Assembly (NCBI GenBank): GCA_000004695.1
Contig: CM000151.3
Location: 256,001 to 320,000 of the forward strand
From: Dictyostelium discoideum
Lineage: Eukaryota
Direction: 5' to 3'
DNA length: 64,000 bases
Part shown: positions 2,017-63,189 of the stretch, in pieces
How the letters are laid out: every line of letters starts with the position of its first letter
Position numbering within the stretch: the stretch's first letter is position 1
Made by a program: the position numbers and the translations under genes
Notes under the pieces: model-generated
Databases searched by the model: none
Seen by the model: the letters and a program-made list of their open reading frames with translations, nothing else
Told to the model about the DNA's origin: nothing

Positions 2017-3749
2017 ATGTCAACAAGTAAAAAAATTAAAACAGATAATAATAAAATATTACAAGATGTGATTGATTATGAAATTTTAAAATCTTTAATA
2101 AATTATTTATTAATCAGCAAAAATAATAAAACAAATTATAATAATACTATTAATCAATATAAAATTAATAAATTTTATTTAAATAGAAATGAAATATTAA
2201 ATTATATATTAGTTTCAAAAAAGTGGTATAATTTTATATCATCAACAATATCAAATAATATTATTGATAATAAATCATTTGAACATTGGTTAAAAATTAA
2301 TTATAATAAAAATAAATCATTTATTGAAAATTACAATAACCAAAATCAATATGATAAAAATAATTTAATTTTTAATGACAAAGAAGATAATCAAAATAAA
2401 ATTAGTTTTAATAAAGAGTTTTCAATTATAAAAATCAAAGAATCAATAATCAATGATTATTTTAAATTCAATTTATTTTTAGATGATATTACAATTGATG
2501 ATTTTAAAGAAATTAAAAATAAATTTGAAAATAATCAATTACTTTATAATAGAATTGTAGTTAATGTTAAAACTGGTTATGAAGGGAATCAAGACGATAG
2601 TATTTTATTCGAAATACATGAATATATATCAAATGAAAATTCAGAAAACATATCAAATTTATTTAAAATATTAGAATTAAATTATAATTATTTGGAAATT
2701 GAGGGCTATAATCCAAGCTCTGAAGAAGATGATGATGAAAGTAATAAGAAATGTACTGAATTATATTTAAATAATTTATCAATTGCTGGTGTTGATAGAG
2801 ATGTAGGTGAAGATGAAGAAACAGTAAAGATATTCAAAATTTTCAAAGGTAAAAATTTAATTTATGATGGATCTGATGTTGCTTGTGATTGTCCAACACA
2901 TGTCGATTATTCAGCATTATTTGATCCAAATAATTCAGGTCAACAAGTTGAATCAATTAAAGTACAAAATAGATTAGATGGTGGTGAATATGTCGAAGCA
3001 CGTCATTTAATCAAAGTTAATCAATTTGAAAATTTACATTCAATTACAATACCAATTAATTCATTTCAAATATTATCAAACCTATCTGAAGAAATGGGAT
3101 TTAATAGTTTCTATAGTAATAGTACAGATTCAGGTAATTCAGAAAATATGAAATCCGAATTAAACCAAATGATTAATTCATTCATTACAAGTAAATCTTT
3201 AAAGAATTTAAATATATCATCCATAGAAAAAGAAGATTCAATTTATAGTGATGATTATGATGATGATGAAACTTTTGCTAATAATATTAATGAAACTATA
3301 GAATCATTTTCAAATTCATTTATACCATTATTTTCAGAATCAAATACATCAATTGAAAGAATTGAATTTGATTGTTGTGGTTTATTAAATATTAATACAT
3401 TTTCAAATTTATTAAAAAACAAATCAATTAAATATTTATATTTATATGATAATAGTGATTTCATTGTTTACTCTTCAAAACAAACTGGTCGTGGTGGTAA
3501 TGATTTACATAAAGAACCTATTTCAATTAATCAATATTTATTTGATAATATATTTTCATCGCCATTAACATCAATTAGACATTATAAAATTAATATCAAA
3601 GAATCAAATCAATTCAAATTAATATTTAATTTAATATTAAATAATATTTTTAAATTACAATTATATTCATTAATATTTGAATTAAATGAAAATGAGTTAG
3701 TTGGTGAATTTGTTAAAGAATTTAAAAATTTAATAAATAATATTTCAAT

Positions 3750-3786
<37 letters not shown>

Positions 3787-3915
3787 AAAGAATCAAATAT
3801 AAATTTAAAAGAAATTAAAATTAAAATCGGAGATGATGAATATATTCCTGAATTAAATAATATTAATAATCCATATTTCACAACAGTAATAAAGAAATTA
3901 CCAAAAAAAAATTAA
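2017..3915 (+). CDS. Tandem-family paralogue (632 aa): MSTSKKIKTDNN... protein with F-box-like N-terminus (candidate), LRR-like conserved blocks, acidic and polyQ cassettes
   Basis: Intact ORF. Conserved blocks shared with the other array members: DPxNSGQQVESIKV, EARHLIKVNQFENLHSITIPINSFQILSNLSEEMGF, NMKSELNQMINSFITSKSLKNL, SFxPLFSExNTSIERIEFDC, INTFSNLLxNKSIKYLYLY, PLTSIRHYKI, FNLILNNIFKLQLYSLIFE, NPYFTTVIKK. Confidence 0.8.
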
Positions 3916-4279
3916 ATAAATAATATTGGTTAATGAAAATTAATTATTATAAATAGTTTTAATAAAATTTTATTATTATTATTGGTTTTTATTGGTATTA
4001 TTATTTTTTTTTAATTTTTTAATTATTAACCATTTAGATATTAATAAAAAAAAAAAAAAATTTAAGCCCCAATTTAATTGAAAAAAAAAAATATATTTTT
4101 AAAAATATCTTTTTTTTTAGATATTAATAAAAAAAAAAAATAAAAAAATAAAAAAAAAAAAGTTTTTTTGGATAATTTTGAGAGAAAAAAAAAAAGTGAA
4201 GCTTTCATTTTTTTTTTTTTTTTTTTTTTGCTTAAAATTCATCATTCTAAAACACACTTTATTATTTAAACAAATAATA

Positions 4280-6361
4280 ATGCCAAAAAATAAAAAAATA
4301 AAAACAGATAAAAATAATAAAATATTTCAAGATGTTATTGAATTTGAAATTTTAAGATCAATAATCAATTATTTATTAATCAGCAAAAAAAAAAAAAAAA
4401 ATAATAATTATAATACTAGTAGTCAATATAAAATTAATAAATTTTATTTAAATAGAAATGAAATATTAAATTATATATTAGTTTCAAAAAAGTGGTATAA
4501 TTTTATATCATTAACAATATCAAATAATATTATTAATAATAAATTATTTGAATATTGGTTAAAAATTAATTATTACAATAAATCATTTATTGAAAATTAT
4601 AATAATCAAAATAAATATGATAAATATAATTTATTTTTCAATAACATAGAAGATTGCAAAAATAAAATTAGTTTTAATAAAGAGTTTTCAATTATAAAAA
4701 TCAAAGAATCAATAATCAATGATTATTTTAAATTCAATTTATTTTCAAATCATATTACAATTGATGATTTTAAAGAAATTAAAAACAAATTTGAAAATAA
4801 TCAATTACTTTATAATAGAATTGTAGTTAATCTTGAAACTGATTATGGTAGCGATGATGATGATATTTTATTTACAATACATGAATATATATCAAATGAA
4901 AATTGGGAAATCATATCAAATTTATTTAAAATAATAGAATTAAATTTTCATTTTTGGTTAGGTGAAGGTTATCAACCAAAATCTGAGGAGGAGGAGGAGG
5001 AGGAAGAGGAGGAGGAGGAGGAAGATCATCATGATACTGATGAATGTTGTAGTCCAAAATCTGAGGAAGACGATCATGATGAACATTGTAGTCCAAAATC
5101 CAAAGAGGATGATGATCATGACGAAGGTTGTCACCCAAAATCTGAAGAGGAGGAGGAGGAGGAGGAGGATGATCTTGATGATGAAGGTAATAAGAAATGT
5201 ACTGAATTATATTTAAATAGTTTAACAGTTGTTGGGTATGATCAAGATGTAGTTGAAGATGAAGAAACAGTAAAGATATTCAAAATTTTCAAAGGTAAAA
5301 ATTTATTTTATGATGGATCTGGTGATTCAATTGATACGTATACACATGTCAATTATTCAGCATTATTTGATCCAGATAATTCAGGTCAACAAGTTGAATC
5401 AATTAATGTACAAATTGAAACTATTAATGAAGAATTCGTTGAAGCACGTCATTTAATCAAAGTTAATCAATTTGAAAATTTACATTCAATTACAATACCA
5501 ATTAGCTCTTTTCAAATATTATCAAGTTTAGCGAAAGAAATGGGATTTACTAGTTTCTATTATAATAGTAAATCAGAATTTGGTAATTCAAAAAATATGA
5601 AATCAGAATTAAATCAAATGATCAATTCATTCGTTACATGTAAATCTTTAAAGAATTTAAAAATAACATCGGTAAATTTAACAGATTATCATATCAACTA
5701 TGAAGGTTATTATGATGGAAATGGAGATCTTGAAATTTTTGCTAATAAAATAAATGAAACTATAGAATCATATTCAAATTCATTCCAACCATTATTTTCA
5801 GAATTAAATACATCAATTGAAAGAATTGAATTAGATTGTATGCGTTTATTAAATATCAATACATTTTCAAATTTATTAAATAATAAATCAATTAAATATT
5901 TATATTTGTATGGTGATAGTGATTTCATTGTTTACTCTTCAAAATCAAGTGGTTATGGTGGTGGTAGTGAATTACATGAAGAATCTATTTCAATTAATCA
6001 ATTTTTATTTGAAAATATATTTACATCACCATTAACATCAATTAGACATTATAAAATTTGTTTCAAATTATCAAATCAATTAAGATTAATATTTAATTTA
6101 ATTTTAAATAATATTTTCAAATTACAATTATATTCATTAATATTTGAATTCGATGAAAACAAATTAGTTGGCGAATTTGTTAAAGAATTTAAAAATTTAA
6201 TAAATAGTATTCCAACTCAAATACAACAAAAATCAAATAACATAAATTTAAAAGAAATTAAAATTAAAATTGAAGATGATGAATATATTCCTGAATTAAA
6301 TAATATTAATAATCCGTATTTCACAACAATAATAAAGAAAATAGAAAAAAAATATGATTAA
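4280..6361 (+). CDS. Tandem-family paralogue (~693 aa from MPKNKKIKTDKNNKIF). Carries an expanded acidic cassette with (GAG)n poly-E and His/Cys-containing repeats HDTDECCSPKSEEDDHDEHCSPKSKEDDDHDEGCHPKSEEEE.
   Basis: ORF 4178..6361, but the upstream part (MREKKKVKLSFFFF...) is poly-T low complexity. The paralogue-conserved start is ATG 4280-4282, preceded by the ...aaacaaataata motif. Confidence 0.8.
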   Translation: MPKNKKIKTDKNNKIFQDVIEFEILRSIINYLLISKKKKKNNNYNTSSQYKINKFYLNRNEILNYILVSKKWYNFISLTISNNIINNKLFEYWLKINYYNKSFIENYNNQNKYDKYNLFFNNIEDCKNKISFNKEFSIIKIKESIINDYFKFNLFSNHITIDDFKEIKNKFENNQLLYNRIVVNLETDYGSDDDDILFTIHEYISNENWEIISNLFKIIELNFHFWLGEGYQPKSEEEEEEEEEEEEEDHHDTDECCSPKSEEDDHDEHCSPKSKEDDDHDEGCHPKSEEEEEEEEDDLDDEGNKKCTELYLNSLTVVGYDQDVVEDEETVKIFKIFKGKNLFYDGSGDSIDTYTHVNYSALFDPDNSGQQVESINVQIETINEEFVEARHLIKVNQFENLHSITIPISSFQILSSLAKEMGFTSFYYNSKSEFGNSKNMKSELNQMINSFVTCKSLKNLKITSVNLTDYHINYEGYYDGNGDLEIFANKINETIESYSNSFQPLFSELNTSIERIELDCMRLLNINTFSNLLNNKSIKYLYLYGDSDFIVYSSKSSGYGGGSELHEESISINQFLFENIFTSPLTSIRHYKICFKLSNQLRLIFNLILNNIFKLQLYSLIFEFDENKLVGEFVKEFKNLINSIPTQIQQKSNNINLKEIKIKIEDDEYIPELNNINNPYFTTIIKKIEKKYD

Positions 6362-6845: not shown

Positions 6846-8050
6846 AAAATAATAATAATATCAACAAGTAAAAAAATAAAAACAGATAATAAAATATTTC
6901 AAGATCTGATTGATTTTGAAATTTTAAGATCCATAACCAATTATTTATTAACTAGCAAAAAAAAAATTAATAATAATAATAATATTAATAATATTAATAA
7001 TTTAAATAATAATAATATTATTAATCAATAAAATTAATAAATTTTATTTAAATAGAAATGAAATATTAAATTATATATTAGTTTCAAAAAAGTTGTATAA
7101 TTTTATATCATTAACAATATCAAATAATATTATTAATAATAAATCATTTGAACATTGGTTAAAAACTAATTATAATAATAATAAATCATTTATTGAAAAT
7201 TATAAAAATCAAAATCAATATGATAAAAATAAAATATTTTATAGCAAAGAAGATTATAATCAATATAAAATTAGTTTTAATAAAGAGTTTTCAACTATAA
7301 AAATCAAAGAATCAATAATCAATGATTATTTTAAATTCAATTTATTTTTAGATAAGCTTACAATTGGTGATATTATAGATATTAAAAATAAATTTGAAAA
7401 TAATCAATTGGTTTATAATAGAATTGTAGTTTATATTAAAACTGATGATGATTGGTTTCCATAATGTGATAATTTATTAAAATATTTAAAATACACGAAT
7501 ATGTATCAAATGGAAATTCAGAAATCATATGAAATTTATTTCAAATATTAGAATTAAATTATGGTTTTAGGTTGCGTAATGGCTATGATCCAAATCTGAA
7601 AGGGTATATTATGATGATAAAGGTAATAAGAAATCAACTGCTGAGTTATATTTTAATAATTTATCAATTGCTGGTAATAGATTTGCAGATGAAGATAACA
7701 AAACAGTCATGGTATTCAAAATATTCAAAGGTAAAAAATTATTTTATAATAAAACTTGTAGATATAGGTCAACACATGTCAATTGTTCATCATTATTTGG
7801 TCCAGATATTTCAGGTCAACAAGTTAAATCAATTGATTTATAAATTCGGTTTGGGAATTTGTTTATGAATTTAAAAATTTAATAAATAATATTTCAATTC
7901 AACAAAAACAACAACAAGAATCAAAACATAAATTTAAAAGAAATTAAAATTAAAATTGTAGTTGATAAATATGAAAAATTTCAAGAACTAAATTATTTTA
8001 AAAATCCATATTTCGCAATAGTAATAAAGAAATTACCAAAATGGTGGTAA
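6846..8050 (+). pseudogene. Decayed copy of the tandem family: family promoter motif present but ATG mutated (ATA), multiple stops and frameshifts, internal deletions
   Basis: tcactctttataatttaaacaaaaaataataataatATCAACAAGT at ~6836. ORF 7093..7464 encodes YNFISLTISNNIINNKSFEHWLK...NRIVVYIKT. Downstream fragments GNKKSTAELYFNNLSIAG, SGQQVKSID and NPYFAIVIKKLPKWW-stop lie in shifted frames. Confidence 0.75.
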
Positions 8051-23447: not shown

Positions 23448-25436
23448 ATGTCAACAAATAAAAAATTTAAAAAATATAATAATAAAATATTTCAAGATGT
23501 TATTGATTTTGAAATTTTAAGATCTATAATCAATTATTTATTAACCAGCAACACAAATAAAAAAAATAATAATAATAATTACAACACTAGTAATCAATAT
23601 AAAATTAATAAATTTTATTTAAATGGAAATGAAATATTAAATTATACATTAGTTTCAAAAAAGTGGTATAATTTTATATCATTAACAATATCAAATAATA
23701 TTATTAATAATAAATTATTTGAACATTGGTTAAAAATTAATTATAATAATAATAATAATTATAATATTATTAATAATAAATCATTTGATAATTGGTTAAA
23801 AATTTATAATAATAATAATAATAAATCATTTATTGAAAACTATAATAATCGAAATCAATATGATAAAAATAATTTATTTTTAAAAAGTGCTAAACAAAAT
23901 AAAATTAGCCAATTTAAAATTAGTTTCAATAAAGAGTTTTCAATTATAAAAATCAAAGAATCAATAATTAATGATTATTTTAAATTCAATTTATTTTTAG
24001 ATTATATTACAATTGATGATTTTAAAGAAATTAAAAAGAAATTTGAAAATAATCAATTACTTTATAATAGAATTGTAATTGATATTAATATTGGAAATGG
24101 TTATGATGATTATAGTTCAAACCAAAGTGATATTATATTTAAAATACATGAATATATATCAAATGAAAATTTAGAGACTATATCAAATTTATTTAAAATA
24201 TTAGAATTAAATTATGTTTATTTGGAAATTGGGGATTATATTCCAAAATCCCCTGAAAAGGGCAAAAGTAATAATAAGAAATGTACCGAAATGTATTTTA
24301 AAAGTTTATCAGTTGATGGTTTATATGAGAACGAAGAAACAGTAAAGATATTCAAAATTTTCAAAGGTAAAAATGTAATATTTCATGGTCCAACACATGC
24401 CGACTCACCATTATTTGACCCAGATAATTCAGGTCAACAAGTTGAATCATTTAAAGTACAAACTGATTTATTCGGATCTTTTGTTGAAGCACGTCATCTA
24501 ATCAAAAGTAATCAATTTGAAAATTTACATTCAATTTCAATAAAAATTAATTCATTTCAAATATTATCAAATATATCTGAAGAAATGGGATCTTATAGAT
24601 TCTATAATAATCATAATTATAAAAATGATCCACCAGATTCGAAAAATATGAAATCAGAATTAAATCAAATGATTAACTCATTCATTACAAGTAAATCTTT
24701 AAAGAATTTAAAAATAACAGCCAATAATACTACACACTATTCAATTGAATATGATGCTTGCTATATTGGAGGTGATCATGAAACTTTTGCAAATAAAATA
24801 AATGAAAATATAGAATCATATTCAAATTCATTTAAACCATTATTTTCAGAATTAAATACATCAATTGAAAGAATTGAATTAAATTGTTGTGGTTTATTAA
24901 ATATCAATACATTTTCAAATTTATTAAATAATAAATCAATTAAATATCTATATTTATACGGTGATAGTGATTTCATTGTTTACTCATCAAAACAAAATGG
25001 TGGTAATAGTGGTGGTGGTGATGGTGTATTACATAAAGAATCTATTTCAATTAATCAGTATTTATTTGATAATATATTTACATCACCATTAACATCAATT
25101 AGACATTATAGAATTAAATTCAAAGAATCAAATCAATTAAAATTAATATTTAATTTAATATTTAATAATATTTTTAAATTACAATTGTATTCATTAATAT
25201 TTAAAATTTATAAAAACGAATTAGTTGGTGAATTTGTTAAAGAATTTAAAAATTTAATAAATAATATTTCAACACAACAAGATCAACAACAAAAATTAAA
25301 TAACATATATTTAAAAGAAATTAAAATAAAAATTGAAGATGATAAATATATTCAAGAATTAAATAATATTAAAAATCCATATTTCACAACAGTAATAAAG
25401 AAATTACCAAAAAGGTTGTGTACACTTAAAAGATAA
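23448..25436 (+). CDS. Tandem-family paralogue (~663 aa from MSTNKKFKKYNNKIF)
   Basis: ORF 23349..25436. The paralogue-conserved ATG is at 23448, preceded by tcagctcactcttacaaataatt. All conserved blocks are present. Gly-rich cassette NGGNSGGGDGVLHKE. Confidence 0.8.
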   Translation: MSTNKKFKKYNNKIFQDVIDFEILRSIINYLLTSNTNKKNNNNNYNTSNQYKINKFYLNGNEILNYTLVSKKWYNFISLTISNNIINNKLFEHWLKINYNNNNNYNIINNKSFDNWLKIYNNNNNKSFIENYNNRNQYDKNNLFLKSAKQNKISQFKISFNKEFSIIKIKESIINDYFKFNLFLDYITIDDFKEIKKKFENNQLLYNRIVIDINIGNGYDDYSSNQSDIIFKIHEYISNENLETISNLFKILELNYVYLEIGDYIPKSPEKGKSNNKKCTEMYFKSLSVDGLYENEETVKIFKIFKGKNVIFHGPTHADSPLFDPDNSGQQVESFKVQTDLFGSFVEARHLIKSNQFENLHSISIKINSFQILSNISEEMGSYRFYNNHNYKNDPPDSKNMKSELNQMINSFITSKSLKNLKITANNTTHYSIEYDACYIGGDHETFANKINENIESYSNSFKPLFSELNTSIERIELNCCGLLNINTFSNLLNNKSIKYLYLYGDSDFIVYSSKQNGGNSGGGDGVLHKESISINQYLFDNIFTSPLTSIRHYRIKFKESNQLKLIFNLIFNNIFKLQLYSLIFKIYKNELVGEFVKEFKNLINNISTQQDQQQKLNNIYLKEIKIKIEDDKYIQELNNIKNPYFTTVIKKLPKRLCTLKR

Positions 25437-25454
25437 AAAATAAAACATCAAAAA

Positions 25455-25930
25455 AACTGGTGATTATGGTAGTGGTGGAAGTGGTAGTGGTAATAGTGGT
25501 GGTGATGGTGTATTACATAAAGAACCTATTTCAATTAATCAATATTTATTTGAAAATATATTTACATCTCAATAAACATCAATTAGACATTATAAAATTA
25601 AATTCAAAAATTCAAAACAATTAAAATTAATATTTAATTTAATATTAAATAATATTTTTAAATTACAATTATATTCATTAATATTTGAATTCTATGAAAA
25701 AGAATTAATTGGCGAATTTGATAAAGAATTTAAAAATTTAATAAATAATATTTCAACACAACAACAACAAAAATCAAATAACATAAATCTAAAAGAAATT
25801 AAAATTAAAATTAAAATTAAAATTAGACATAATGAATTAATTCAAAAATTAAATAATATTAATAATCCATATTTCAAAACAGTGATAAAGAAAATAGCTT
25901 TTAATGATGGTCGTGCACCGGAGAAAAAAA
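25455..25930 (+). pseudogene. 3'-terminal fragment duplicate of the family gene (segmental partial duplication) with an in-frame stop
   Basis: Encodes GDYGSGGSGSGNSGGDGVLHKEPISINQYLFENIFTSQ-stop-TSIRHYKIKFKNSKQLKLIFNLILNNIFKLQLYSLIFEF...NPYFKTVIKKIA. No 5' part is present. Confidence 0.7.
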
Positions 25931-26858: not shown

Positions 26859-26898
26859 CATTAGTCAGACTCACTCTTTATAATTTAGACTAATAATA
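26859..26898 (+). promoter_or_regulatory. Family-conserved upstream/5'-UTR motif (A)ACATTAGTCAGACTCACTCTTTATAATTTAAACAAATAATA immediately before the ATG
   Basis: Recurs at 29149-29189, 32432-32472, 38733-38764, 41635-41662, 23420-23447, 6826-6860 (pseudogene), 40795-40830 (orphan), 55540-55563, and inverted at 45917-45955. Degenerate versions at 1990-2016 and 4250-4279. Confidence 0.6.
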
Positions 26899-29189: not shown

Positions 29190-29297
29190 ATGTTAACAAA
29201 TAAACAAATAAAAACAGATAACAATAAAATATTTCAAGATATTATTGATTTTGAAATATTAAAATCAATAATCAATTATTTATTAATTAGCAAAAAT

Positions 29298-29345
<48 letters not shown>

Positions 29346-32164: not shown

Positions 32165-32380
32165 TATTTTAAAGTAATTTCATTGTTTACTCATCAAAAC
32201 CTATTGATAATAGTAAAGGTCTTGGTGGTGGTGGTGGTGGTCGATTACATAAAGAACCTATTTTAATTTATTAATATTTATTTGATAATATTTTCATCAC
32301 CATTAACATCAATTAGATATTATAAAATTTAATATCTATAGTCCAAAACTATTAATAATCCATATTTCACAATAATATTA
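32165..32380 (+). pseudogene. Short degenerate 3' fragment of a family gene
   Basis: ...FIVYSSKPIDNSKGLGGGGGGRLHKEPILIY-stop..FDNIFITININ-stop-ILNNPYFTIIL. Frames are broken. Confidence 0.6.
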
Positions 32381-38764: not shown

Positions 38765-40618
38765 ATGTCAACAAATAAAAAAATAAAAACAGATAATAAT
38801 AATAAAATATTTCAAGATATTATTGATTTTGAAATTTTAAAATCTATAATCGATTATTTATTAACCAGCAAAAAAAATAAAAATAATAATAATATTAATA
38901 ATAATCAATATATAATTAAAAAATTTTATTTATATAGAGATGAAATATTAAATTATATATTAGTTTCAAAAAAGTGGTATAATTTTATATCATTTACAAT
39001 ATCAAATAATATTATTAATAATAAACTATTTGAACATTGGTTAAAAACTAATTTTAGTAATAATTCATTTATTGAAAATTATAATAATCAAAATCAATAT
39101 GATAAAAATAATTTAATTTATAATAACATAGAAGATAAACAATATAAAATTAGTTTTAATAAAGAATTTTCAATTATAAAAATCAAAGAATCAATAATCA
39201 ATGATTATTTTAAATTCAATTTATTTTTAGATCATTTTACGATTGACGATGATTTTAAAGAAATTAAAAATAAATTTGAAAAAAATCAATTACTTTATCA
39301 TAGAATTGTAGTTAGTGTTGATACTGATAATTATGGGTTTCCTAGTGATATTTTATTTACAATACATGAATATGTATCAAATGAAAATTCAGAAATCATA
39401 TCAAATTTATTTAAAATATTAGAATTAAATTTTGATTTTTGGTTGGATTACGGATATTGTCCACGTTCTGAAGAGGAGGATGATGAAGGTAATAAAAAAT
39501 GTAGAGAAATATATTTAAATAATTTATCAATTGCTGGTTATAATAGAGAAGTAGGTGAAGATGAAGAAACATTAAAGATATTCAAAATTTTCAAAAGTAA
39601 AAATATAATTTATGATGGATCCAATATTGATGAAAGTGATACTCCAACACATATCGATTATTCAACATTATTCGATCCAGATAATTCAGGTCAACAAGTT
39701 GAATCAATTAAAGTAAAAAATGAATATGGTAATGAAGCACGTCATTTAATCAAACTTAATCAATTTAAAAATTTACATTCAATTACAATACCAATTAATT
39801 CATTTCAAATATTATCAAACTTATCTGAAGAAATGGGATTTTGTAAGTTATATCGTACGATATATTCAGGTGATTCAGATAATATGAAATCAGAATTAAA
39901 TCAAATGATTAATTCATTCATTACAAATAAATCTTTAAAGTATTTAAATATATCATCTGTAAATTCAATATACACTCTTCCAATTAAAAATTATGATGGA
40001 GGTTATCATGAAATTTTTTTTAATAAAATAAATAAAACTATAGAATCATATTCAAATTCATTTAAACCATTATTTTCAGAATTAAATACATCGATTGAAA
40101 GAATTGAATTTGATTGTATGGGTTTATTAAATAATAAATCAATTAAATATTTATATTTATATGATAGTGATTTCATTGTTTATTCATCAAAACAAAAAGG
40201 TAATGTTAGTGGTATTCGATTACATAAAGAACATATTTCAATTAATCAATATTTATTTGATAATATATTTTCATCACCATTAACATCAATTAGACATTAT
40301 AAAATTAAATTCATAGAATTAAATCAAATCAAATTCTTATTTAATTTAATATTAAATAATATTTTTAAATTACAATTATATTCATTAATATTTGAATTCA
40401 ATGATAGCGAATTAATTGGTGAATTTGTTAAAGAATTTAAAAACTTAATAAATAATATTTCAACACAAGAACAACAAAAATCAAATAACATAAATTTAAA
40501 AGAAATTAAGATTAAAATTCAAGATGTTAATATTGATAAATATATTCAAGAATTAAATAATATTAACAATCCATATTTTACAACAATAATAAAGAAAAAA
40601 GCTAATAATGATGATTAA
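38765..40618 (+). CDS. Tandem-family paralogue (617 aa)
   Basis: Intact ORF. Upstream motif tatcagacactctttataatttaaacaaataata (38733-38764). Confidence 0.85.
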   Translation: MSTNKKIKTDNNNKIFQDIIDFEILKSIIDYLLTSKKNKNNNNINNNQYIIKKFYLYRDEILNYILVSKKWYNFISFTISNNIINNKLFEHWLKTNFSNNSFIENYNNQNQYDKNNLIYNNIEDKQYKISFNKEFSIIKIKESIINDYFKFNLFLDHFTIDDDFKEIKNKFEKNQLLYHRIVVSVDTDNYGFPSDILFTIHEYVSNENSEIISNLFKILELNFDFWLDYGYCPRSEEEDDEGNKKCREIYLNNLSIAGYNREVGEDEETLKIFKIFKSKNIIYDGSNIDESDTPTHIDYSTLFDPDNSGQQVESIKVKNEYGNEARHLIKLNQFKNLHSITIPINSFQILSNLSEEMGFCKLYRTIYSGDSDNMKSELNQMINSFITNKSLKYLNISSVNSIYTLPIKNYDGGYHEIFFNKINKTIESYSNSFKPLFSELNTSIERIEFDCMGLLNNKSIKYLYLYDSDFIVYSSKQKGNVSGIRLHKEHISINQYLFDNIFSSPLTSIRHYKIKFIELNQIKFLFNLILNNIFKLQLYSLIFEFNDSELIGEFVKEFKNLINNISTQEQQKSNNINLKEIKIKIQDVNIDKYIQELNNINNPYFTTIIKKKANNDD

Positions 40619-41662: not shown

Positions 41663-43516
41663 ATGTCAACAAATAAAAAAATAAAAACAGATAATAATAA
41701 AAAAATATTTCAAGATATTATTGATTTTGAAATTTTAAGATCAATAATTAATTATTTATTAATCAGCAAAAAAAATAAAAATAATAATAATAATACTAGT
41801 AATCAATATAAAATTAATAAATTTTATTTAAATAGAGATGAAATATTAAATTATATATTAGTTTCAAAAAAGTGGTATAATTTTATATCATTAACAATAT
41901 CAAATAGTATTATTAATAATAAATTATTTGAACATTGGTTAAAAATTAATTATAATAATAAATCATTTATTGAAAATTTTAATAATCAAAATCAATATGA
42001 TAAAAATAATTTAATTTCTAAAAACAAAAAATATAAACAAAATAAAATTAGTTTTAATAAAGAGTTTTCAATTATAAAAATCAAAGAATCAATAATCAAT
42101 GATTATTTTAAATTCAATTTTTTTTTAGATTATATTACAATTGATGATTTTAAAGAAATTAAAAATAAATTTGAAAATAATCAATTACTTTATAATAGAA
42201 TTGTAGTTAATGGTAGTTATGAAGGGGAAGTTTTATTTGGAATACATGAATATTTATCAAATGAAAATTCAGGAGTTATTTTAAATTTATTTAAAATATT
42301 AGAATTAAATCATGCTTTTAATTTATATTATAAACCAAAATCTGAAGAGAAGGATGAGGAGGATGGTCATGATGATAAAGGTAATAAGAAATGTACTGAA
42401 ATATATTTAAATAGTTTATCAGTTTTTGGTTTTGATGAAGGTGAGGGTGAAGTTCAAACATTAAAGATATTCAAAGTTTTCAAAGGTAAAAATTTAGTTT
42501 ATGATGGATCTGAAGAAGATCCTGATTTTCAAACACATATCAATTACTCTGCATTATTTGATCCAGATAGCTCAGGTCAACAAGTTGAATCGATTCAAGT
42601 ACAAAATAAATATGATAATGAAGAGTCAGTCGAAGCACGTCATTTAATCAAAGTTAATCAATTTAAAAATTTACATTCAATTATAATACCAATTAATTCA
42701 TTTCAAATATTATCAAACTTATCTAAAGAAATGGGATTTATTAGTTCCCATGGTTATGAAGAATATTCAGGAAATTCAGAAAATATGAAATCAGAATTAA
42801 ATCAAATGATCAATTCAATCGTTACAAGTAAATCTTTAAAGAATTTAAAAATAACATCTGTAAATTCAATATATTATCCAATTGATTACAAAGCTTTTTA
42901 TGATGGTGATCTTGAAACCCTTACTAATAAAGTAAATGAAACTATAGAATCATTTTCAAATTCATTTAAACCATTATTTTCAGAATTAAATACATCAATT
43001 GAAAGAATTGAATTTGATTGTATGGGTTTATTAAATATCAATACATTTTCAAATTTATTAAATAATAAATCAATTAAATATTTATATTTATATAATAGTG
43101 ATTTCATTGTTTTTTCACCTAAAAAAAGAGGTGGTCCATTTCATAGAGAACCTATTTCAATTAATCAATATTTATTTGATAATATATTTTCATCACCATT
43201 AACATCAATTAGACATTATAAAATTAAATTCATAAAATCAAATGAATTAAAATTCATATTTAATTTAATATTAAATAATATTTTTAAATTACAATTATAT
43301 TCATTAATATTTGAATTCAATGAAAACGAATTAATTGGTGAATTTTTTAAAGAATATAAAAATTTAAAAAATAATATTTCAACACAACAACAAAAATCAA
43401 ATAACATAAATTTAAAAGAAATTAAAATTAAAATTAAAGATGATGAATATATTCAAGAATTAAATAATATTAATATTCCATATTTCACCACAACATTAAT
43501 AAAGAAAATAACCTAA
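41663..43516 (+). CDS. Tandem-family paralogue (617 aa)
   Basis: Intact ORF. Upstream motif cgcgcactctttataatttaaaaaaataata (41635-41662). Confidence 0.85.
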   Translation: MSTNKKIKTDNNKKIFQDIIDFEILRSIINYLLISKKNKNNNNNTSNQYKINKFYLNRDEILNYILVSKKWYNFISLTISNSIINNKLFEHWLKINYNNKSFIENFNNQNQYDKNNLISKNKKYKQNKISFNKEFSIIKIKESIINDYFKFNFFLDYITIDDFKEIKNKFENNQLLYNRIVVNGSYEGEVLFGIHEYLSNENSGVILNLFKILELNHAFNLYYKPKSEEKDEEDGHDDKGNKKCTEIYLNSLSVFGFDEGEGEVQTLKIFKVFKGKNLVYDGSEEDPDFQTHINYSALFDPDSSGQQVESIQVQNKYDNEESVEARHLIKVNQFKNLHSIIIPINSFQILSNLSKEMGFISSHGYEEYSGNSENMKSELNQMINSIVTSKSLKNLKITSVNSIYYPIDYKAFYDGDLETLTNKVNETIESFSNSFKPLFSELNTSIERIEFDCMGLLNINTFSNLLNNKSIKYLYLYNSDFIVFSPKKRGGPFHREPISINQYLFDNIFSSPLTSIRHYKIKFIKSNELKFIFNLILNNIFKLQLYSLIFEFNENELIGEFFKEYKNLKNNISTQQQKSNNINLKEIKIKIKDDEYIQELNNINIPYFTTTLIKKIT

Positions 43517-43936: not shown

Positions 43937-44050
43937 CTATTTCTTTATTACTGTTGTGAAATATGGAATATTAATATTATTTATTTCTTGAATATATTCA
44001 TTATCATTAGTTTCAATTTTAATTTCTTTTAAAGTAATGTTATTTGATTT

Positions 44051-44126
<76 letters not shown>

Positions 44127-45916
44127 ATTGAAATATTATTTATTAAATTTTTAAATTCTTTAACAAAATCACAAACTAATTCGTTTTTATTGAATTCAAA
44201 TATTAATGAATATAATTGTAATTTAAAAATATTATTTAATATTAAATTAAATATGAATTTTAATTGATTTAATTCATTCAATTTAATTTTATAATGTCTA
44301 ATTGATGTTAATGGTGATGAAAATATATTATCAAATAAATATTGATTAATTGAAATAGGTTCTTGATGTAATTCATTACCGCTATAACTTGGTTTTGAAG
44401 AGTAAACAATGAAATCACTACCATATAAATATAAATATTTAATTGATTTATTATTTAATAAATTTGAAAATGTATTGATATTTAATAAACCACAACAATC
44501 AAATTCAATTCTTTCAATTGATGTATTTAATTCTGAAAATAATGGTTTAAATGAATTTGAAAATGATTCTATAGTTTCGTTTATTTTATTAGCAAAAATT
44601 TCATGATCAGCTCCCTTACAATCACGATAATATAAACCTTCATAATCAATTGGAGAATATTTTGAACTTACTGATGAGATATTTAAATTCTTTAAAGATT
44701 TACTTGTAATAAATGAATTGATCATTTGATTTAATTCTGTATTAATATTTTCAGAGTTACCCGATTCTGATTTACTATTATAAAATCTAATAAATCCCAT
44801 ATCCTCAGATAAGTTTGATAATATTTGAAAAGAGCTAATTGGTATTGTAATTGAATGTAAATTTTCAAATTGATTAACTTTGGCTAAATGGAGAGGTTCA
44901 ACAAATTCATCATTATCAGGTTCAATTTGTACTTTAATTGATTCAACTTGTTGACCTGAATTATCTGGATCAAATAATGCTGAATAATTGACATGTGTAG
45001 GCATATCACTACAAGTATCAGATCCATCATAAAATATATTTCTACCTTTGAAAATTTTGAATATCTTTACTGTTTCTTCATCATTACCTACTTCTCCATC
45101 AAAACCTGCAATTGATAAATTATTTAAATATAATTCAGTACATTTCTTACCACCTTTATCAGTATCATGATCACCTTCCTCCTCTTCAGAGTTTGGGCTA
45201 TAACCATTATCCAAACAAAAATCAATATTTAATTCTAATATTTTAAATAATTTTGATATGACTTCTGAATTTTCATTTGATACATATTCATGTATTCTAA
45301 ATAAAGTTGTTTTATTATTATTACTATCATAATCAGCATCAACATTAACTACAATTCTATTATAAAGTAATTGATTATTTTCAAATTTATTTTTAATTTC
45401 TTTAAAATCATCAATTGTAATCTTATATAAAAATAAATTGATTTTAAAATAATCATTGATTATTGATTCTTTGATTTTTATAATTGAAAACTCTTTATTA
45501 AAACTAATTTTATTTTGTTGATAATTATAATCTTCATCTTTAAAAATTAAATTATTTTTATCATATTGATTTTGATTATTATAATTTTCAATAAATGATT
45601 TATTTTTATTATTATAATTAATTTTTAACCAATGTTCAAATAATTTATTATCAATAATATTATTTGATATTGTTAATGATATAAAATTATACCACTTTTT
45701 TGAAACTAATATATAATTTAATATTTCATTTCTATAAAAATAAAATTTATTAATTTTATATATATTAATAGTATTATTATTTAAATTATTATTTTTATTT
45801 TTATTTTTTTTGCTAGTTAATAAATAGTTGATTATAGATTTTAAAATTTCAAAATCAATAATATCTTGAAATATTTTATTGTTATTATTTGTTTTTATTT
45901 TTTTACTTGTTGACAT
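43937..45916 (-). CDS. Tandem-family paralogue (659 aa), the only inverted member. (CAA)n-encoded polyQ of ~37 residues.
   Basis: Intact ORF on the minus strand. Family upstream motif in reverse at 45917-45955 (...cattattatttgttaacatgatatgttaagagtgagtttg). Confidence 0.85.
44051..44126 (-). repeat. (CAA)n trinucleotide microsatellite encoding polyQ (shown as (TTG)n on the plus strand)
   Basis: Direct read. The homologous polyQ in other paralogues ranges from 3 to 12 Q. Confidence 0.9.
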
Positions 45917-53489: not shown

Positions 53490-55472
53490 ATGTCAACAAA
53501 AAAAAAAATTAAAACAGATAATAATAATAAAATATTTCAAGATTTTATTGATTTTGAAATTTTAAGATCTTTAATCAATTATTTATTAATCAACAAAACA
53601 AATAATAATAATAATAATAATAATAAATATAAAATTAGTAAATTTTATTTACATAGAAATGAAATATTGAATTATATATTAGTTTCAAAAAAGTGGTATA
53701 ATTTTATATCATTAACAATATCAAATAATATTATTAATAATAAATCATTTGAACATTGGTTAAAAATTAATAATAATAATAATAATAAATCATTTACTAA
53801 AAATTATAATAATCAAAATCGATATGATAAAAATAATTTAATTTTTAATAACAAATATAGTAAAAATAAAATTGGTTTTAATAAAGAATTTTCAATTATA
53901 AAAATCAAAGAATCAATAATCAAAGATTATTTTAAATTCAATTTATTTTTAAGTAATATTACAATTGATGATTTTAAAGAAATTAAAAATAAATTTGAAA
54001 ATAATCAATTAGTTTATAATAGAATTGTTGTTGATATTAAAACTGGCTATTATGGTGAAGGGAATCAAGATGAAATTTTATTTAAAATACATGAATATGT
54101 ATCAAATGAAAATTCAGAAATCATATCAAATTTATTTAAAATATTAGAATTAAATCATGATTTTATGATAATCGATGACTTTCATCCAAAATCTAAAGAA
54201 GAGGATGAAGAGGATGAGGAGGATGATGAAAATGATAAAGGTAGTAAGAAATGTACTGAAATATATTTAAATAATTTATTGGTTTCCGGTTATGATCTAA
54301 CTATGGATGAGGATGAAGATAGAGAATCATTAAAGATATTCAAAATATTTAAAAGTAAAAATATATTTTATGATGGGTCTGGTATTGCTAGTGATATTCC
54401 AACACATGTCAATTATTCAGCATTGTTTGATCCTGATAATTCAGGTCAACAAGTTGAATCGATTAAAGTAAAAAATGAACTTGAAGATCCTGATTTTGTA
54501 GAACCACTCCATTTAATCAAAGTTAATCAATTTAAAAATTTACATTCAATTACAATACCAATTAATTCATTTCAAATATTATCAAACTTATCCGAAGAAA
54601 TGGGATATTTTAGTATCGATTGTTTTAAATCTGGTTTTGGTCTTTCAGATAATATGAAATCAGAATTAAATCAAATGATCAATTCATTCATTACAAGTAA
54701 ATCTTTAAAAAATTTAAAAATAACATCTATTAGTACAAAAGAAGATCCAATTGATTATGATGCTTATTATGATGAAGGTGATCTTCAAACTTTTATGAAT
54801 CAAATAAATGAACCTAAAGAATCATTTTCAAATTGTTTCAAACCATTATTTTCAGAATTAAATACATCAATTGAAAGAATTGAATTTGATTGTTGCGGTT
54901 TATTAAATATCAATACATTTTCAAATTTATTAAATAATAAATCAATTAAATATTTATATTTATATGATAGTGATTTCTTTTTTTCTTCATTAAAAACAAG
55001 TGATGGTGGTAGTGATGATTGTGGTATTGATGATGATGGTGGTAGTGATGATTGTGGTATTGATGATGATGGTGGTAGTGATGATTGTGATGCATATCAA
55101 AAAATTATTTCCATTAATCAATATCTATTTGAAAATATATTTTCATCACCATTAACATCAATTAGACATTACAGAATTAAATTCAAAGAATTAGATGAAT
55201 TAAAATTCATATTTAATTTAATATTAAATAATATTTTTAAATTACAATTATATTCATTAATATTTGAATTCAATGAAAACGAATTAGTTTATGAATTTGT
55301 TAAAGAATTTAAAAATTTAATAAATAATATTTCAATACAAGAACAACAACAACAACAACAAAAATCAAACAACATAAATTTAAAAGAAATTAAAATTATA
55401 ATAAATGATGACTGTTTAGAAGAATTAAATAATCCATATTTCAAAACAACAATAAAGAATAGCCCATATTAA
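53490..55472 (+). CDS. Tandem-family paralogue (660 aa). Contains a 3 x 27-bp tandem repeat encoding DGGSDDCGIDD at ~55010-55090. Its upstream region lacks the CACTCTTTATAA motif.
   Basis: Intact ORF with all conserved blocks. Confidence 0.85.
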   Translation: MSTKKKIKTDNNNKIFQDFIDFEILRSLINYLLINKTNNNNNNNNKYKISKFYLHRNEILNYILVSKKWYNFISLTISNNIINNKSFEHWLKINNNNNNKSFTKNYNNQNRYDKNNLIFNNKYSKNKIGFNKEFSIIKIKESIIKDYFKFNLFLSNITIDDFKEIKNKFENNQLVYNRIVVDIKTGYYGEGNQDEILFKIHEYVSNENSEIISNLFKILELNHDFMIIDDFHPKSKEEDEEDEEDDENDKGSKKCTEIYLNNLLVSGYDLTMDEDEDRESLKIFKIFKSKNIFYDGSGIASDIPTHVNYSALFDPDNSGQQVESIKVKNELEDPDFVEPLHLIKVNQFKNLHSITIPINSFQILSNLSEEMGYFSIDCFKSGFGLSDNMKSELNQMINSFITSKSLKNLKITSISTKEDPIDYDAYYDEGDLQTFMNQINEPKESFSNCFKPLFSELNTSIERIEFDCCGLLNINTFSNLLNNKSIKYLYLYDSDFFFSSLKTSDGGSDDCGIDDDGGSDDCGIDDDGGSDDCDAYQKIISINQYLFENIFSSPLTSIRHYRIKFKELDELKFIFNLILNNIFKLQLYSLIFEFNENELVYEFVKEFKNLINNISIQEQQQQQQKSNNINLKEIKIIINDDCLEELNNPYFKTTIKNSPY

Positions 55473-55625: not shown

Positions 55626-55895
55626 TTTTTTTTTTTTATATAAATAAATAATTTACCTTTTGATTTGGAAATATAATTTATTTTATTTTGTTTGTTGTAG
55701 GGAATTTTCCATAAAATTTCACTACAGTAGCGTAGTGAATTTTATTATTTAATTTCACTACAGTAGCGTAGTGAAAAAAAAAAATCACTGACCTTAAATT
55801 TTTTTTTTTTTCAAAAAACAAATAAAGTTTATTAAATTGAAATTTTATTTTTTGTTTTAATTATTATTTTATTTATTTTTATTATAATTATTGTT

Positions 55896-55935
<40 letters not shown>

Positions 55936-56076
55936 CAATTTTTTTTTTTTAAATTTTTTTCAATTTTTATTTGTTTATTAAATTGTAATTTTATTTTTTG
56001 TTTTAATTATTATTTTATTTATTATTATTGTTAATTTTTTTTTTTTTTCAATTTTTTTTTTTTTAATTTATTTTTA

Positions 56077-58038: not shown

Positions 58039-58120
58039 AGCTTGTTTTAATAGTTCAGAAAGAGACCTAGAAGTACCATCAAGAAAACTAAAATTTATTT
58101 ATAAATGATTAATTAATAAA

Positions 58121-60450: not shown

Positions 60451-60743
60451 GCTGTGATTCTATAATCATTAATTACTTCTAAACACACTTCTTTTGATAT
60501 ATTTCTATCTCCGCCACAATTCATGACTTTTTTTTCAATTCTAAATAATTTTTCTTTTCTGTTTCTGTTTTTTATTGGTCAGAATTTAAAAAATGATTGT
60601 GTTATTGTAAGGAAAAATATTTACTCATCATGTAAAAATTTATAATTTTTATGTTTAGTATTTTCAAAATTATTATCTTCAATAAATTTTAAATAATTTA
60701 TAATTTCATTTATTTTATCTTGTTTCATTTTGGGAAAATGAAA

Positions 60744-60778
<35 letters not shown>

Positions 60779-61104
60779 TGTTGGGGAAAAAAAAAAAAAG
60801 TTTTGGCGCAAAAAAAAAAAAAAAAATTAAATAAAAAAAAAAAAAAATTAAATAAAAAAAAAAAAAAATAAAAAAACTTATATAGAACTAATAATCAAAT
60901 AAAAGATAATAATTTAATAAACTTTATTTGTTTTTTGAAAAAAAAAAAATTTAGGGTCAGTGATTTTTTTTTTTCACTACGCTACTGTAGTGAAATTAAA
61001 TAATAAAATTCACTACGCTACTGTAGTGAAATTTTATTGAAAATTCCCTACAACATTGTTCGATGAAAATGAGAAGATTTTTTTTATCCCAGTTGTAGTG
61101 AAAA

Positions 61105-61160
61105 AATTAAATAATATTTTTAAATTACAATTATATTCATTAAAATTTGAAAAAAAATAA
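61105..61160 (+). pseudogene. 3' remnant of the family gene disrupted by the transposon at 55694..61054
   Basis: aaattaaataatatttttaaattacaattatattcattaaaatttgaa = LNNIFKLQLYSLKFE block. No upstream coding. Confidence 0.5.
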
Positions 61161-61313
61161 TAAAAAAAAAAAAAAATTTTTGGCTTTTAAGATTTATGGA
61201 GAATTATCCATCAAAAAAAAAAAAAAAAAAAAAAGGTTAAAAAAAAAAAAAAGGTTAAAAAAAAAAAAAAAATTAAACTTTTTTTTAAAAACTTATTCTT
61301 AAAACAAATAAAA

Positions 61314-63032
61314 ATGTTAACAAATAAAAAAATTAAAACAGATAATAGTAATAAAATATTTTCAAATACTAATGATAATGAAATTTTAAGATCTTTAATC
61401 GATTATTTATTAATCAGCAAAAACAATAAAACAAATAATAATAATAATGCAAATCAATATAAAATTAAAAAAATTTTAATAAATAGAAATGAAATATTCA
61501 ATTATATATTAGTTTCAAAAAAGTGGTATAATTTTATATCATTAACAATATCAAATAATATTATTGATAATAAATCATTTGAACATTGGTTAGAAATTAA
61601 TTATACAAAAAAATCATATACTAAAAATAATAATAATCAAATTCAATATGATAAAAAGAAAATTAATTTTAATAAAAAGTTTTCAATTATAAAAATCCAA
61701 GAATCAATAATCAATGATTATTTTAAATTCAATTTATTTTTAGATAATTTTACAATTAATTATTTTAAAGAAATTAAAGATAAATATGAAAATAATCAAT
61801 TAGATTATAAAAGAATAGTTGTTAATCTTAAAACTAATTCTGGTGGTAATAAAAAAATTTTATTAAATATAAATGAATATGTATCAAATGAAAATTCAGA
61901 AATCATACCAAATCTATTTAAAATATTAGAATTAAATTCTGATTTTAAGTTGGACAAGTGCTATATTCCAATATCTGAAGGTACTGAAATATATTTAAAT
62001 AATTTATCGATTTCTGGTTATGAGGGTATAACATCGAAGATATTCCAAATTTTCAAAAGTAAAAAGATAATTTATGATGGGTCTTGTTGTCCAACAAATG
62101 TCAATTATTCAAAGATATTTGATCCAGATAATTCAGGCCAACAAGTTGAATCGATTAAAGTTAAAAATGAAAGTGGTAATAAACAGTTTGTTGAACCACA
62201 TCATTTAATTAAAGTTTACCAATTTGAAAATTTACATTCAATCACAATACCAATGGATTCATTTCAAATATTATCAGGCTTTTCTGAAAAAATGGGATTC
62301 AATAAATTTGATATGAATAATAAATATCCAGGTAATTCGAAAAATATGGAATCAGAATTAAATCAAATGATCAATTCATTCATTACAAGTGAATCTTTAA
62401 AGAATTTAAAAATATCATCAGTATGTTCACAATACGTTATTTTTAAAATGAATATTGATAAAATAAATCAAATTAAAGAATCAATTTCAAAATCATTTAA
62501 ACCATTATTTTCAGAATTAAATACATCAATTGAAAGAATTGAATTAGATTGTGGTGGTATATTAAATATCAATACATTTTCAAATTTATTAAATAATAAA
62601 TCAATTAAATATTTATATTTATATGATAGTGATTTTATTGTTTATTCATTTAAACAAACTGGTGGTGGAAGTTATTGTAGTATTAATCAATTTCTATTTG
62701 AAAATATATTTTCATCACCACAAACATCAATTAAACATTATGGATTTTGCTTCAAAAAATCAAATGAACTCGAATTAATATTTAATTTAATATTAAATAA
62801 TATTTTTAAATTACAACTATATTCATTAATATTTGTATTAAATAAAAACGAATTAATTGAGAAATTTGTTAAAGAATATGGAAAATTTATAAAAAAAATT
62901 TCAACACTAATACAAAAACCACAACAAGAACAACAAGAAAAACAAGAACAAGAACAACAACCACAGGAAATACAAAATTTAAATTTAAAAGAAATTAAAA
63001 TTAAAATTAAAATTAAAATAAAATTATTTTAA
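61314..63032 (+). CDS. Divergent, shorter tandem-family paralogue (572 aa; MLTNKKIKTDNSNKIF...). C-terminal (KI)n and (QEQ)n expansions. The family-conserved C-terminus (NPYFTTVIEK) lies out of frame at 63040-63125.
   Basis: Intact ORF with conserved blocks (DPDNSGQQVESIKV, NMESELNQMINSFITSESLKNL, SFKPLFSELNTSIERIELDC). Downstream QYFQELKNLKNPYFTTVIEKTVNING is in another frame. Confidence 0.75.
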   Translation: MLTNKKIKTDNSNKIFSNTNDNEILRSLIDYLLISKNNKTNNNNNANQYKIKKILINRNEIFNYILVSKKWYNFISLTISNNIIDNKSFEHWLEINYTKKSYTKNNNNQIQYDKKKINFNKKFSIIKIQESIINDYFKFNLFLDNFTINYFKEIKDKYENNQLDYKRIVVNLKTNSGGNKKILLNINEYVSNENSEIIPNLFKILELNSDFKLDKCYIPISEGTEIYLNNLSISGYEGITSKIFQIFKSKKIIYDGSCCPTNVNYSKIFDPDNSGQQVESIKVKNESGNKQFVEPHHLIKVYQFENLHSITIPMDSFQILSGFSEKMGFNKFDMNNKYPGNSKNMESELNQMINSFITSESLKNLKISSVCSQYVIFKMNIDKINQIKESISKSFKPLFSELNTSIERIELDCGGILNINTFSNLLNNKSIKYLYLYDSDFIVYSFKQTGGGSYCSINQFLFENIFSSPQTSIKHYGFCFKKSNELELIFNLILNNIFKLQLYSLIFVLNKNELIEKFVKEYGKFIKKISTLIQKPQQEQQEKQEQEQQPQEIQNLNLKEIKIKIKIKIKLF

Positions 63033-63189
63033 AATTAAATATAATCAATATTTTCAAGAATTAAAAAATTTAAAAAATCCATATTTCACAACAGTAATAG
63101 AGAAAACGGTTAATATTAATGGTTAAAAAAATATAAAAATTATAACACTCAATCAAATACTAAAACAAAAAACTTTTCAATTAAAAATC

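Follow-up and report, generated by a model that had tools for sequence, protein, structure and literature searches.

A tandem array of putative split F-box/leucine-rich repeat receptor genes on chromosome 2 of Dictyostelium discoideum

F-box proteins of the FBXL type, such as SKP2, FBXL2, FBXL3 and FBXL17, Dia2 of yeast, and COI1 and MAX2 of plants, have an N-terminal F-box followed by a solenoid of leucine-rich repeats (LRRs). We analyzed a 64-kb stretch of Dictyostelium discoideum DNA (the whole of which is referred to below as the window), which belongs to AX4/AX2 chromosome 2 (8.48 Mb in AX4) from DDB_G0271228 to DDB_G0271424 and contains a tandem array of genes whose predicted proteins are laid out in the same order. 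Members of the array are also, like the FBXL receptors, associated with Skp1 in vivo (PMC9485057). The array proteins differ from the FBXL receptors in that their F-box is split by a low-complexity loop of 16–26 residues and is without the Leu-Pro, in that their LRR units are irregular (25–50 residues) and without a Pfam LRR match, and in that they have no sequence-detectable orthology to any FBXL protein outside group-4 Dictyostelium. Very probably, the array genes code for substrate receptors of SCF (Skp1-cullin-F-box) ubiquitin ligases that form a lineage-specific, F-box/LRR subfamily of the FBXL type.

The list of F-box candidates of Dictyostelium was enlarged by Boland et al. (2022, J Biol Chem, PMC9485057) using Skp1 co-immunoprecipitation (co-IP) and mass spectrometry. 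Figure S3 of that paper has entries for DDB_G0271408, DDB_G0271404, DDB_G0347826, DDB_G0271418, DDB_G0271228, DDB_G0271202 and DDB_G0271434, each with an F-box-like sequence, a “loop between helix 1 & 2” (e.g., LINKKNNNNNNNTSNQYKINKFYF) and a receptor domain given as “LRR+”. Most of these entries came down in vegetative and/or slug co-IPs, and several were marked as enhanced by Skp1 prolyl hydroxylation/PhyA (PMC9485057). Six genes of the window are thus among the Skp1-interactome F-box candidates (PMC9485057; Sheikh et al. 2015 as cited there), being, by string or exact-sequence match, the copies that start at 26899, 4280, 43937, 53490, 2017 and 41663. DDB_G0271434 is a seventh family member in the Skp1 list and lies outside the window. 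At least seven separate Skp1-interactome entries therefore belong to one family, with six of them in this single array.

A preliminary description of this DNA, made from its letters only, had proposed SCF adaptors and named a Skp1 pull-down as the test. In effect that experiment had been published, with an outcome in favor of the SCF reading; what had been guessed about structure and function was right, but was already in the literature gene by gene. The main text of PMC9485057 contains neither “chromosome” nor “gene family”, and “tandem” only within a reference title; as the genes are listed as separate entries without such terms, the tandem family is not described there. The identifiers of the array genes were absent from the main texts of the papers searched, the mention being in a supplement, and the genes carry the label “hypothetical protein” in GenBank and UniProt. 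The family-level picture, of one tandem, lineage-restricted and copy-number-variable FBXL-like array, appears to be undescribed.

The split F-box and the leucine-rich repeat domain

The native sequences of the family reached no Pfam threshold. Their sole recurrent weak match was to the F-box, at the NEILNYILVSKKWYNFIS block, and the Pfam profile scan identified it at E ≤ 1 in 6 of 65 family members. For a test of the split, the 16–26 residues between “…YLLx” and “xE[IL][IL]…” were deleted in ten members, among them D. purpureum, D. citrinum and D. dimigraforme relatives with less than 30% identity overall; the splice point was picked by us and is a degree of freedom in this test. The best family for all ten spliced sequences was an F-box-type profile (PF00646, or F-box-like PF12937 for two), with PF00646 alignments running from profile positions 4–13 through 36–38. 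Six of the ten attained the gathering score of 20.5 bits, and the D. purpureum member also passed PF12937. When the helix-1 half was reversed as a control, nothing was above threshold and the match shrank to positions 17–38.

A profile of the spliced N-terminus matched 15 PDB sequences at E ≤ 10, and 14 of the 15 were F-box proteins aligned in register at their F-boxes. Among them were Skp2, Dia2 and KDM2A, a further likeness to the FBXL type, together with Cdc4, β-TrCP and FBXO42. The single E-values of these matches were marginal; the enrichment for F-box proteins was not. A profile of the whole-length family searched against the PDB sequences gave only spurious G protein-coupled receptor matches.

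In copy 4 (26899..28827, + strand), the reference for our structure models, the helix-1 half of the F-box is at 26944..27000 (residues 16–34, LQDIIDFEILKSIINYLLI), the Asn/Lys-rich insert between helices 1 and 2, which contains an (AAT)n tract, at 27001..27072 (residues 35–58), and the helix-2/3 half at 27073..27168 (residues 59–90, NEILNYILVSKKWYNFIS…). E23, I24, L25, I28, L32 and V67-S-K-K-W71, including V67, S68 and W71 of the second half, are conserved family-wide; the hallmark patterns with which they were compared are LPxE[IL]LxxI[LF]xxL for helix 1 and V/C-x-[KR]-x-W for helix 3. The second of two AlphaFold2 (AF2) models, made from an alignment that included distant relatives, had helices at residues 54–67 and 69–85, the region of F-box helices 2 and 3, with a pLDDT of 55–75. 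Based on the in-register matches of the spliced sequences, the failure of the reversed control and the PDB matches, the earlier reading of the N-terminal motif as an F-box split by an Asn/Lys-rich insert was upheld, and, as judged from sequence, all three F-box helices are present in register once the inter-helix loop is allowed for.

Both AF2 models (pTM 0.71 and 0.76) predicted with high confidence alternating β/α units from residue 144 to the C-terminus. In copy 4 the predicted solenoid (27328..28824, + strand, residues 144–642) has approximately 15 β-strand/helix units at irregular spacings of 25–50 residues. Foldseek matched it to NLRP3/7/9, RNase inhibitor, SKP2, FBXL3, COI1, MAX2 and Dia2, and its strands have motifs that resemble those of LRRs, e.g., LKNLKIS, IKYLYLY and LYSLIFE. 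Together, the models indicate that the C-terminal ~500 residues form a curved LRR solenoid of repeating β-strand/helix units. The LRR-like repeats of the preliminary description were therefore borne out by the AF2 models and Foldseek; the profile checks that it had recommended gave no match to Pfam LRR families or to FNIP (PF05725) in scans of the family members, and in lacking PF05725 the array proteins differ from the FNIP-type LRR F-box proteins of Dictyostelium.

Several observations weigh against the assignment of the array proteins as SCF receptors. The best F-box scores of the native sequences were 11.7–14.9 bits against a cut-off of 20.5, over profile positions 15/20–38 only, helix 1 starts with Ile/Leu-Asp in place of the canonical Leu-Pro, and AF2 confidence for helix 1 was low (pLDDT ~35–40). 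No Pfam LRR family was matched at E ≤ 1 in any of the 65 members, and the irregular unit lengths do not make up a regular LxxLxLxxN repeat. In crude counts of synonymous and non-synonymous differences (pS and pN; Nei-Gojobori, on 11–14 sequences), pS varied along the gene, from 0.013 in F-box helix 2/3 (alignment columns 61–120, where pN was 0.06) to 0.15–0.31 elsewhere; the low value in the F-box could reflect local gene conversion, a composition effect or nucleotide-level constraint. To our knowledge, no substrate, ubiquitylation activity or phenotype has been reported for the array proteins. With respect to the Skp1 data, DDB_G0271404 was classed “p” only, without a stage flag (PMC9485057 supplement), co-IP is not proof of direct Skp1 binding, and the assignment of peptides to single genes may be ambiguous among paralogues that are 65–80% identical.

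These points are the basis for an alternative in which the F-box is vestigial: the proteins would be LRR proteins that, with the insert and the missing Leu-Pro, no longer dock directly, and their co-IP would be indirect or due to shared peptides. The sub-threshold native scores, the low confidence for helix 1 and published evidence consisting of co-IP and mass spectrometry only are as this alternative predicts. We nonetheless regard it as highly unlikely. Both halves of the F-box are conserved in register in species whose proteins are less than 30% identical elsewhere, residues I24, L32, L33, E60, V67, S68 and W71 are invariant or nearly so, and the N-terminal pN between paralogues (0.090) was the lowest of any class. 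In addition, co-IPs with two different antibodies, and at two stages, brought down multiple paralogues, and several were enhanced by Skp1 hydroxylation/glycosylation, like bona fide F-box proteins (PMC9485057). Other F-box candidates of Dictyostelium in the same paper, e.g., DDB_G0288687, also have loops at the helix 1–2 position (PMC9485057).

Each array protein comprises a short basic N-terminus, a split F-box with a 16–26-residue Asn/Lys-rich loop after helix 1, and an irregular LRR solenoid of ~500 residues. If the array proteins are SCF substrate receptors, the F-box would dock on Skp1, with which six copies associate by the published co-IPs, presumably by direct binding despite the loop, and the LRR domain would present substrates to the SCF complex for ubiquitylation.

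Organization, distribution and turnover of the array

The window is strongly AT-rich (GC 0.14–0.30) and has eleven open copies of the family, ten full-length and one with a frameshifted tail, of which ten are on the + strand and one is on the − strand. Their products are 572–693 residues in length and 68–80% identical to that of copy 1, and tblastn of all against all gave E = 0 among all eleven. Copy 1 (2017..3915, +, 632 residues, intact) is DDB_G0271228, as its F-box and loop string matches Figure S3 of PMC9485057, and copy 2 (4280..6361, +, 693 residues, intact) is DDB_G0271404, with the longest acidic tract of the family. Exact matches were found for copy 3 (23448..25436, +, 662 residues) to DDB_G0271406, for copy 4 (642 residues) to DDB_G0271408, to which it is 100% identical on AX4 chromosome 2, for copy 6 (32473..34452, +, 659 residues) to DDB_G0271214 and for copy 7 (38765..40618, +, 617 residues) to DDB_G0271412; copy 5 (29190..31112, +, 640 residues) is intact. 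Copy 8 (41663..43516, +, 617 residues) is identical to ACTFIT_002076 (AX2-214-type) and shares a 90% cluster with DDB_G0271202. Copy 9 (43937..45916, 659 residues), which has a (CAA)25 polyQ tract and is DDB_G0347826 by its loop string, is on the − strand, as the preliminary description had noted. Copy 10 (53490..55472, +, 660 residues) is an exact match to DDB_G0271418 and has a 30-bp × 3 minisatellite in its Gly/Asp loop. Copy 11 (61314..63111, +) is an exact match to DDB_G0271424 with a 572-residue open reading frame (ORF); it has deletions, and the ~28 residues at its C-terminal end are encoded in a different frame (63028–63111). All eleven paralogues of the preliminary description, including the inverted one, had ORFs exactly where it placed them; its count of eleven intact copies has to be qualified for copy 11, whose tail is frameshifted.

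The alignment of the copies is a mosaic, with column identities of 0.85–0.98 in blocks versus 0.1–0.5 in indel-rich stretches, where the gap fraction reaches 0.9. The mosaic reported earlier is therefore real, with blocks that are a near-invariant consensus and not strictly invariant. A motif of the upstream region/5′ leader (…ACTCACTCTTTATAATTTAAACAAATAATAATG) ends in the ATG, and was strict (≤3 mismatches in 33 nt; none expected by chance) in five copies, at 26869..26901, 29160–29192, 32443–32475, 38735–38767 and 41633–41665, all on the + strand. A degenerate form was recognizable in approximately four further copies and in the pseudogene at 6885–8041. The motif scan of the copy starts did not find it at copies 53490 and 61314, so the earlier statement that every copy keeps a ~40-bp upstream motif holds for most copies and not for all. 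The shared leader motif of 33–45 nt may provide for common regulation of the copies.

An exhaustive profile search of 1.84 billion representative proteins gave only 55 matches, and all ten of those looked up by name were from group-4 Dictyostelium, the named species being D. discoideum, “cf. discoideum”, D. citrinum, D. dimigraforme, D. firmibasis and D. purpureum. On this sequence evidence the family is confined to group-4 Dictyostelium. The best relatives outside the discoideum clade were 27–35% identical; the identities for the neighboring polyketide synthase (PKS) were 94% in “cf. discoideum”, 85% in D. citrinum and 62% in D. firmibasis. Wild-strain assemblies were from the 2025 PNAS genome set (PMC12745789), the main text of which discusses tgr genes and does not mention the F-box/LRR family. 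By 90%-cluster representatives, at least 42 were counted on a single contig of one wild strain and at least 18 in another wild strain; AX4 has roughly 15. In wild D. discoideum GCA_054859385.1, a Tgr-like Ig/TIG gene (PF24612 Ig_TgrO1; locus L001, 285–2908, − strand) directly adjoins the F-box/LRR array, and the same locus is without the PKS; the local gene order therefore differs from that of the window.

Decayed copies were sought by tblastn. The pseudogene at 6885..8041 (+) is in several frames, with frameshifts and an internal deletion of approximately residues 330–580, and has kept the upstream motif. A partial 3′ duplicate at 25510..25908 (+) corresponds to the 3′ third of the gene (~residues 516–642) and is the second unit of a 484-bp × 1.8 tandem duplication at 25019–25896 (Tandem Repeats Finder), and a decayed, frameshifted fragment is at 32173..32353 (+, ~residues 492–552). 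There is also a tiny remnant (…LNNIFKLQLYSLKFE) of 15–30 residues (E ~0.03) at 61059..61151 (+). The preliminary description had counted at least five decayed copies, of which these three clear ones and the tiny remnant were found. Translated searches of the claimed remnants at 40795–40870 and ~55540 gave zero family similarity in any frame, and the supposed transposon-split copy at 55540/61105 is therefore unsupported. Sensitive blastn of the gene flanks against the window gave mostly poly(A)/poly(T) matches and no additional family remnants.

Eight of the eleven copies were closer to a wild-strain copy (77–87%) than to any local paralogue (63–75%), which argues for birth and death rather than concerted evolution. 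The pseudogenes, the partial tandem duplicate, the approximately 3-fold copy-number difference between strains and these inter-strain affinities support evolution of the array by birth and death, in accord with the preliminary description. Turnover probably involves unequal tandem duplication and partial duplication as well as inversion, deletion and frameshift.

Variable segments and selection among the paralogues

The preliminary description had treated the segments between the blocks as cassettes that differ in every copy, and had seen in them a feature of diversification. At the DNA level, they are homocodon runs and minisatellites, namely (AAT)n in the F-box loop, (GAG/GAA/GAT)n after ILELN, (GGT)n before HKEPISINQ and (CAA)n near the C-terminus. 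The acidic tract of copy 4280 consists of (GAG)n and a 42-bp × 2.7 minisatellite at 4985–5169. The shortest polyQ tract has 3 residues, as described, and the longest has 25, short of the ~37 given earlier. Codon-repeat tracts such as replication slippage produces are abundant throughout the D. discoideum genome. The cassettes are most simply explained by replication slippage, as ordinary codon-repeat and minisatellite tracts and not as a special diversification device.

The alternative to slippage and point mutation would be a mechanism dedicated to diversification, for example targeted hypermutation or a templated exchange of cassettes. The way in which conserved segments alternate with variable ones is striking to the eye, and the nearest-neighbor relations among the copies shift from one stretch of the gene to the next, as such a mechanism could produce. 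We consider it extremely improbable, as the DNA of the cassettes consists of homocodon runs and short tandem duplications, neither donor cassettes nor flanking repeats were found, and the closest inter-strain pairs differ by ordinary substitutions (pN/pS ~0.46). The PHI recombination test was likewise not significant (p = 0.19), with incompatibility uniformly high. Gene conversion, which the PHI result does not demonstrate, may have acted on the array.

Outside the repeat tracts, 49 well-aligned positions had an entropy above 2.6 bits; 36 of these are in coil, and each LRR β-strand is followed by ~8 residues in which they are repeatedly found. The residues of the β-strands (the concave face) were among the most conserved positions. 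By LRR geometry, the ~8 post-strand residues would line one rim of the modeled horseshoe, and they are the best candidates for specificity determinants. The paralogues differ by slippage-type tracts in surface loops and by the ~8 residues after each strand, and it would be these post-strand loops that set specificity.

In a neutral simulation using the observed substitution spectrum, ~10 stop codons were expected per copy over 521 aligned codons, and none of 120 simulated lineages was stop-free. No stops were observed in the eleven copies, and therefore the ORFs have been kept open by selection. The simulation gave a neutral pN/pS of 0.98 ± 0.15. The ratio between paralogues was 0.81 and, by class, was 1.14 in the post-strand loops (bootstrap confidence interval (CI) 0.93–1.45), 0.73 in helices and 0.67 in other coil. 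For the inter-strain comparison, which used the three window copies that have a close counterpart in wild D. discoideum (loci L001–L003, ~87% amino acid identity), the closest pairs had ratios of 0.38–0.67 (pooled 0.46) at a pS of ~0.09. Each paralogue is under moderate purifying selection, and faster amino acid change accompanied the divergence of the paralogues. Copy 61314 had a ratio of 1.10 to its closest relative; based on this ratio, its deletions and its frameshifted tail, it may be decaying or its constraint may have been relaxed. pS and pN correlate along the gene, which could reflect local homogenization or, equally, a composition effect (two-fold AT-ending codons with few accessible synonymous changes). 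Compared with the neutral value, none of these ratios bears out the “diversifying” selection of the preliminary description. Positive selection is neither shown nor contradicted; the CI of the highest site class spans 1.

The differences between paralogues could still be adaptive, with the array a set of SCF receptors that positive selection diversifies toward new targets such as pathogen, endosymbiont or rival-strain proteins, an idea already put forward for the F-box expansions of nematodes and plants. This would fit a paralogue pN/pS (0.81) nearly twice the inter-strain value (0.46), variable positions that recur in the eight residues after the β-strands, with a ratio of 1.14, and a copy number that differs ~3-fold between isolates. 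The identity of at most 30% to the best D. citrinum relative, compared with 85% for the neighboring PKS, and the Tgr-like Ig gene that adjoins the array in one wild strain are also in its favor. However, no site class had a pN/pS significantly above 1, pS was also raised in the post-strand loops, and alignment error or relaxed constraint would explain the high ratio there equally well. The conservation of the concave-face residues, the large share of the visible difference that is codon-repeat length, and a non-family neighbor pair with similar values (pS 0.114, ratio 0.50) all count against adaptation, which we consider possible but doubtful.

A more specific and less probable version, which we offer as speculation, is a fast-turnover receptor repertoire whose variable post-strand loops recognize non-self proteins, whether of bacterial prey or of pathogens, of Chlamydia-like endosymbionts or of rival strains. 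If true, a social amoeba would have a ubiquitin-based system of intracellular surveillance or conflict, and this system would be convergent with the F-box expansions of nematodes and plants. Specificity would have been fixed after an initial burst of change, leaving a paralogue pN/pS approximately twice that between strains.

Neighboring features and comparison with known systems

Upstream of copy 1, at 636–1863 (+), is a Dicty_CTDC cysteine-rich repeat gene that has 72-bp repeats and a 247-bp × 2 duplication (99% identity) and is split over two overlapping ORFs. An isolated cytochrome P450 fragment at 8272–8823 (−; 183-residue ORF, profile positions 153–337 of 462), which is either a single exon or a gene relic, is between the pseudogene and the PKS gene. 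The latter (10225–16983, +) seems truncated or inactivated: a 2496-residue relative aligns only over residues 1–50, 50–2009 and 2122–2254, and the open frame begins only at 11349, which implies an in-frame stop upstream. At 19867–22956 (+) is DDB_G0271218, a 1029-residue ORF with no Pfam match from another multi-copy, strain-variable Dictyostelium family (paralogues DDB_G0276559, 276409, 276403, 276401 and 271262). It was 88.9% identical to its wild-strain counterpart over 487 aligned codons (pS 0.114, pN/pS 0.50). This ORF had been taken as the “PKS” baseline and was rejected because it is from an uncharacterized family whose strain variability makes it a poor neutral baseline; the true PKS ORF was used instead.

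A segment at 55693–61055 is bracketed by a 243-nt inverted repeat that is 80% complementary overall, with 80 nt at 98.75%. Inside it is a retroelement relic with direct repeats (58121–58894 and 59687–60479, 91–100% identical) that flank integrase zinc-finger and core fragments (− strand) and have a tRNA-like T-arm sequence within them; a tRNA scan of the window found none. The same segment has an ORF at 56674–57168 (+) made almost wholly of a 12-nt-period repeat encoding GDLEGDLNGDLK-type units. A dispersed element of ~230 bp, probably a transposon end or solo LTR, occurs four times among the family genes in both orientations, at 35333–35510 (+), 36061–36293 (−), 51780–52001 (−) and ~43590–43820, the last being ~120–350 bp downstream of the stop of copy 43937–45916.

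No new mechanism is involved in the proposed SCF receptor role, as F-box/LRR adaptors and lineage-specific tandem expansions are well known. The array illustrates that protist F-box proteins can be too divergent for domain libraries, and would offer a genetically tractable block of SCF receptors in which to seek substrates and roles in feeding, infection and social conflict. With respect to the hypervariable tgrB/tgrC allorecognition locus (PMC12745789), a recognition function has been demonstrated for the Tgr proteins, which are secreted or membrane Ig/TIG proteins, whereas the array proteins are predicted to be cytosolic F-box/LRR proteins without a known link to recognition, and divergence in the array neighborhood (pS ~0.1) does not clearly exceed that of the adjacent gene. 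The two systems are alike in being from the same organisms and genome set, in local gene birth and death, inversions and partial duplicates, in the loss of synteny between isolates, and in the Tgr-like gene that adjoins the array in one strain. The lineage-specific, fast-evolving F-box expansions of Caenorhabditis and plants (e.g., PMC8120010, PMC12951971, PMC3719486) differ from the array in their receptor domains, FTH/FBA2 in nematodes and FBA/Kelch/LRR in plants compared with LRR here, and in that positive selection is documented there and not shown for the array, whose family is also small at roughly 15–45 copies per genome. In its tandem arrangement, high copy-number turnover and many pseudogenes, and in having high diversity among wild isolates with a conserved F-box and a more variable receptor domain, the Dictyostelium array resembles these expansions.

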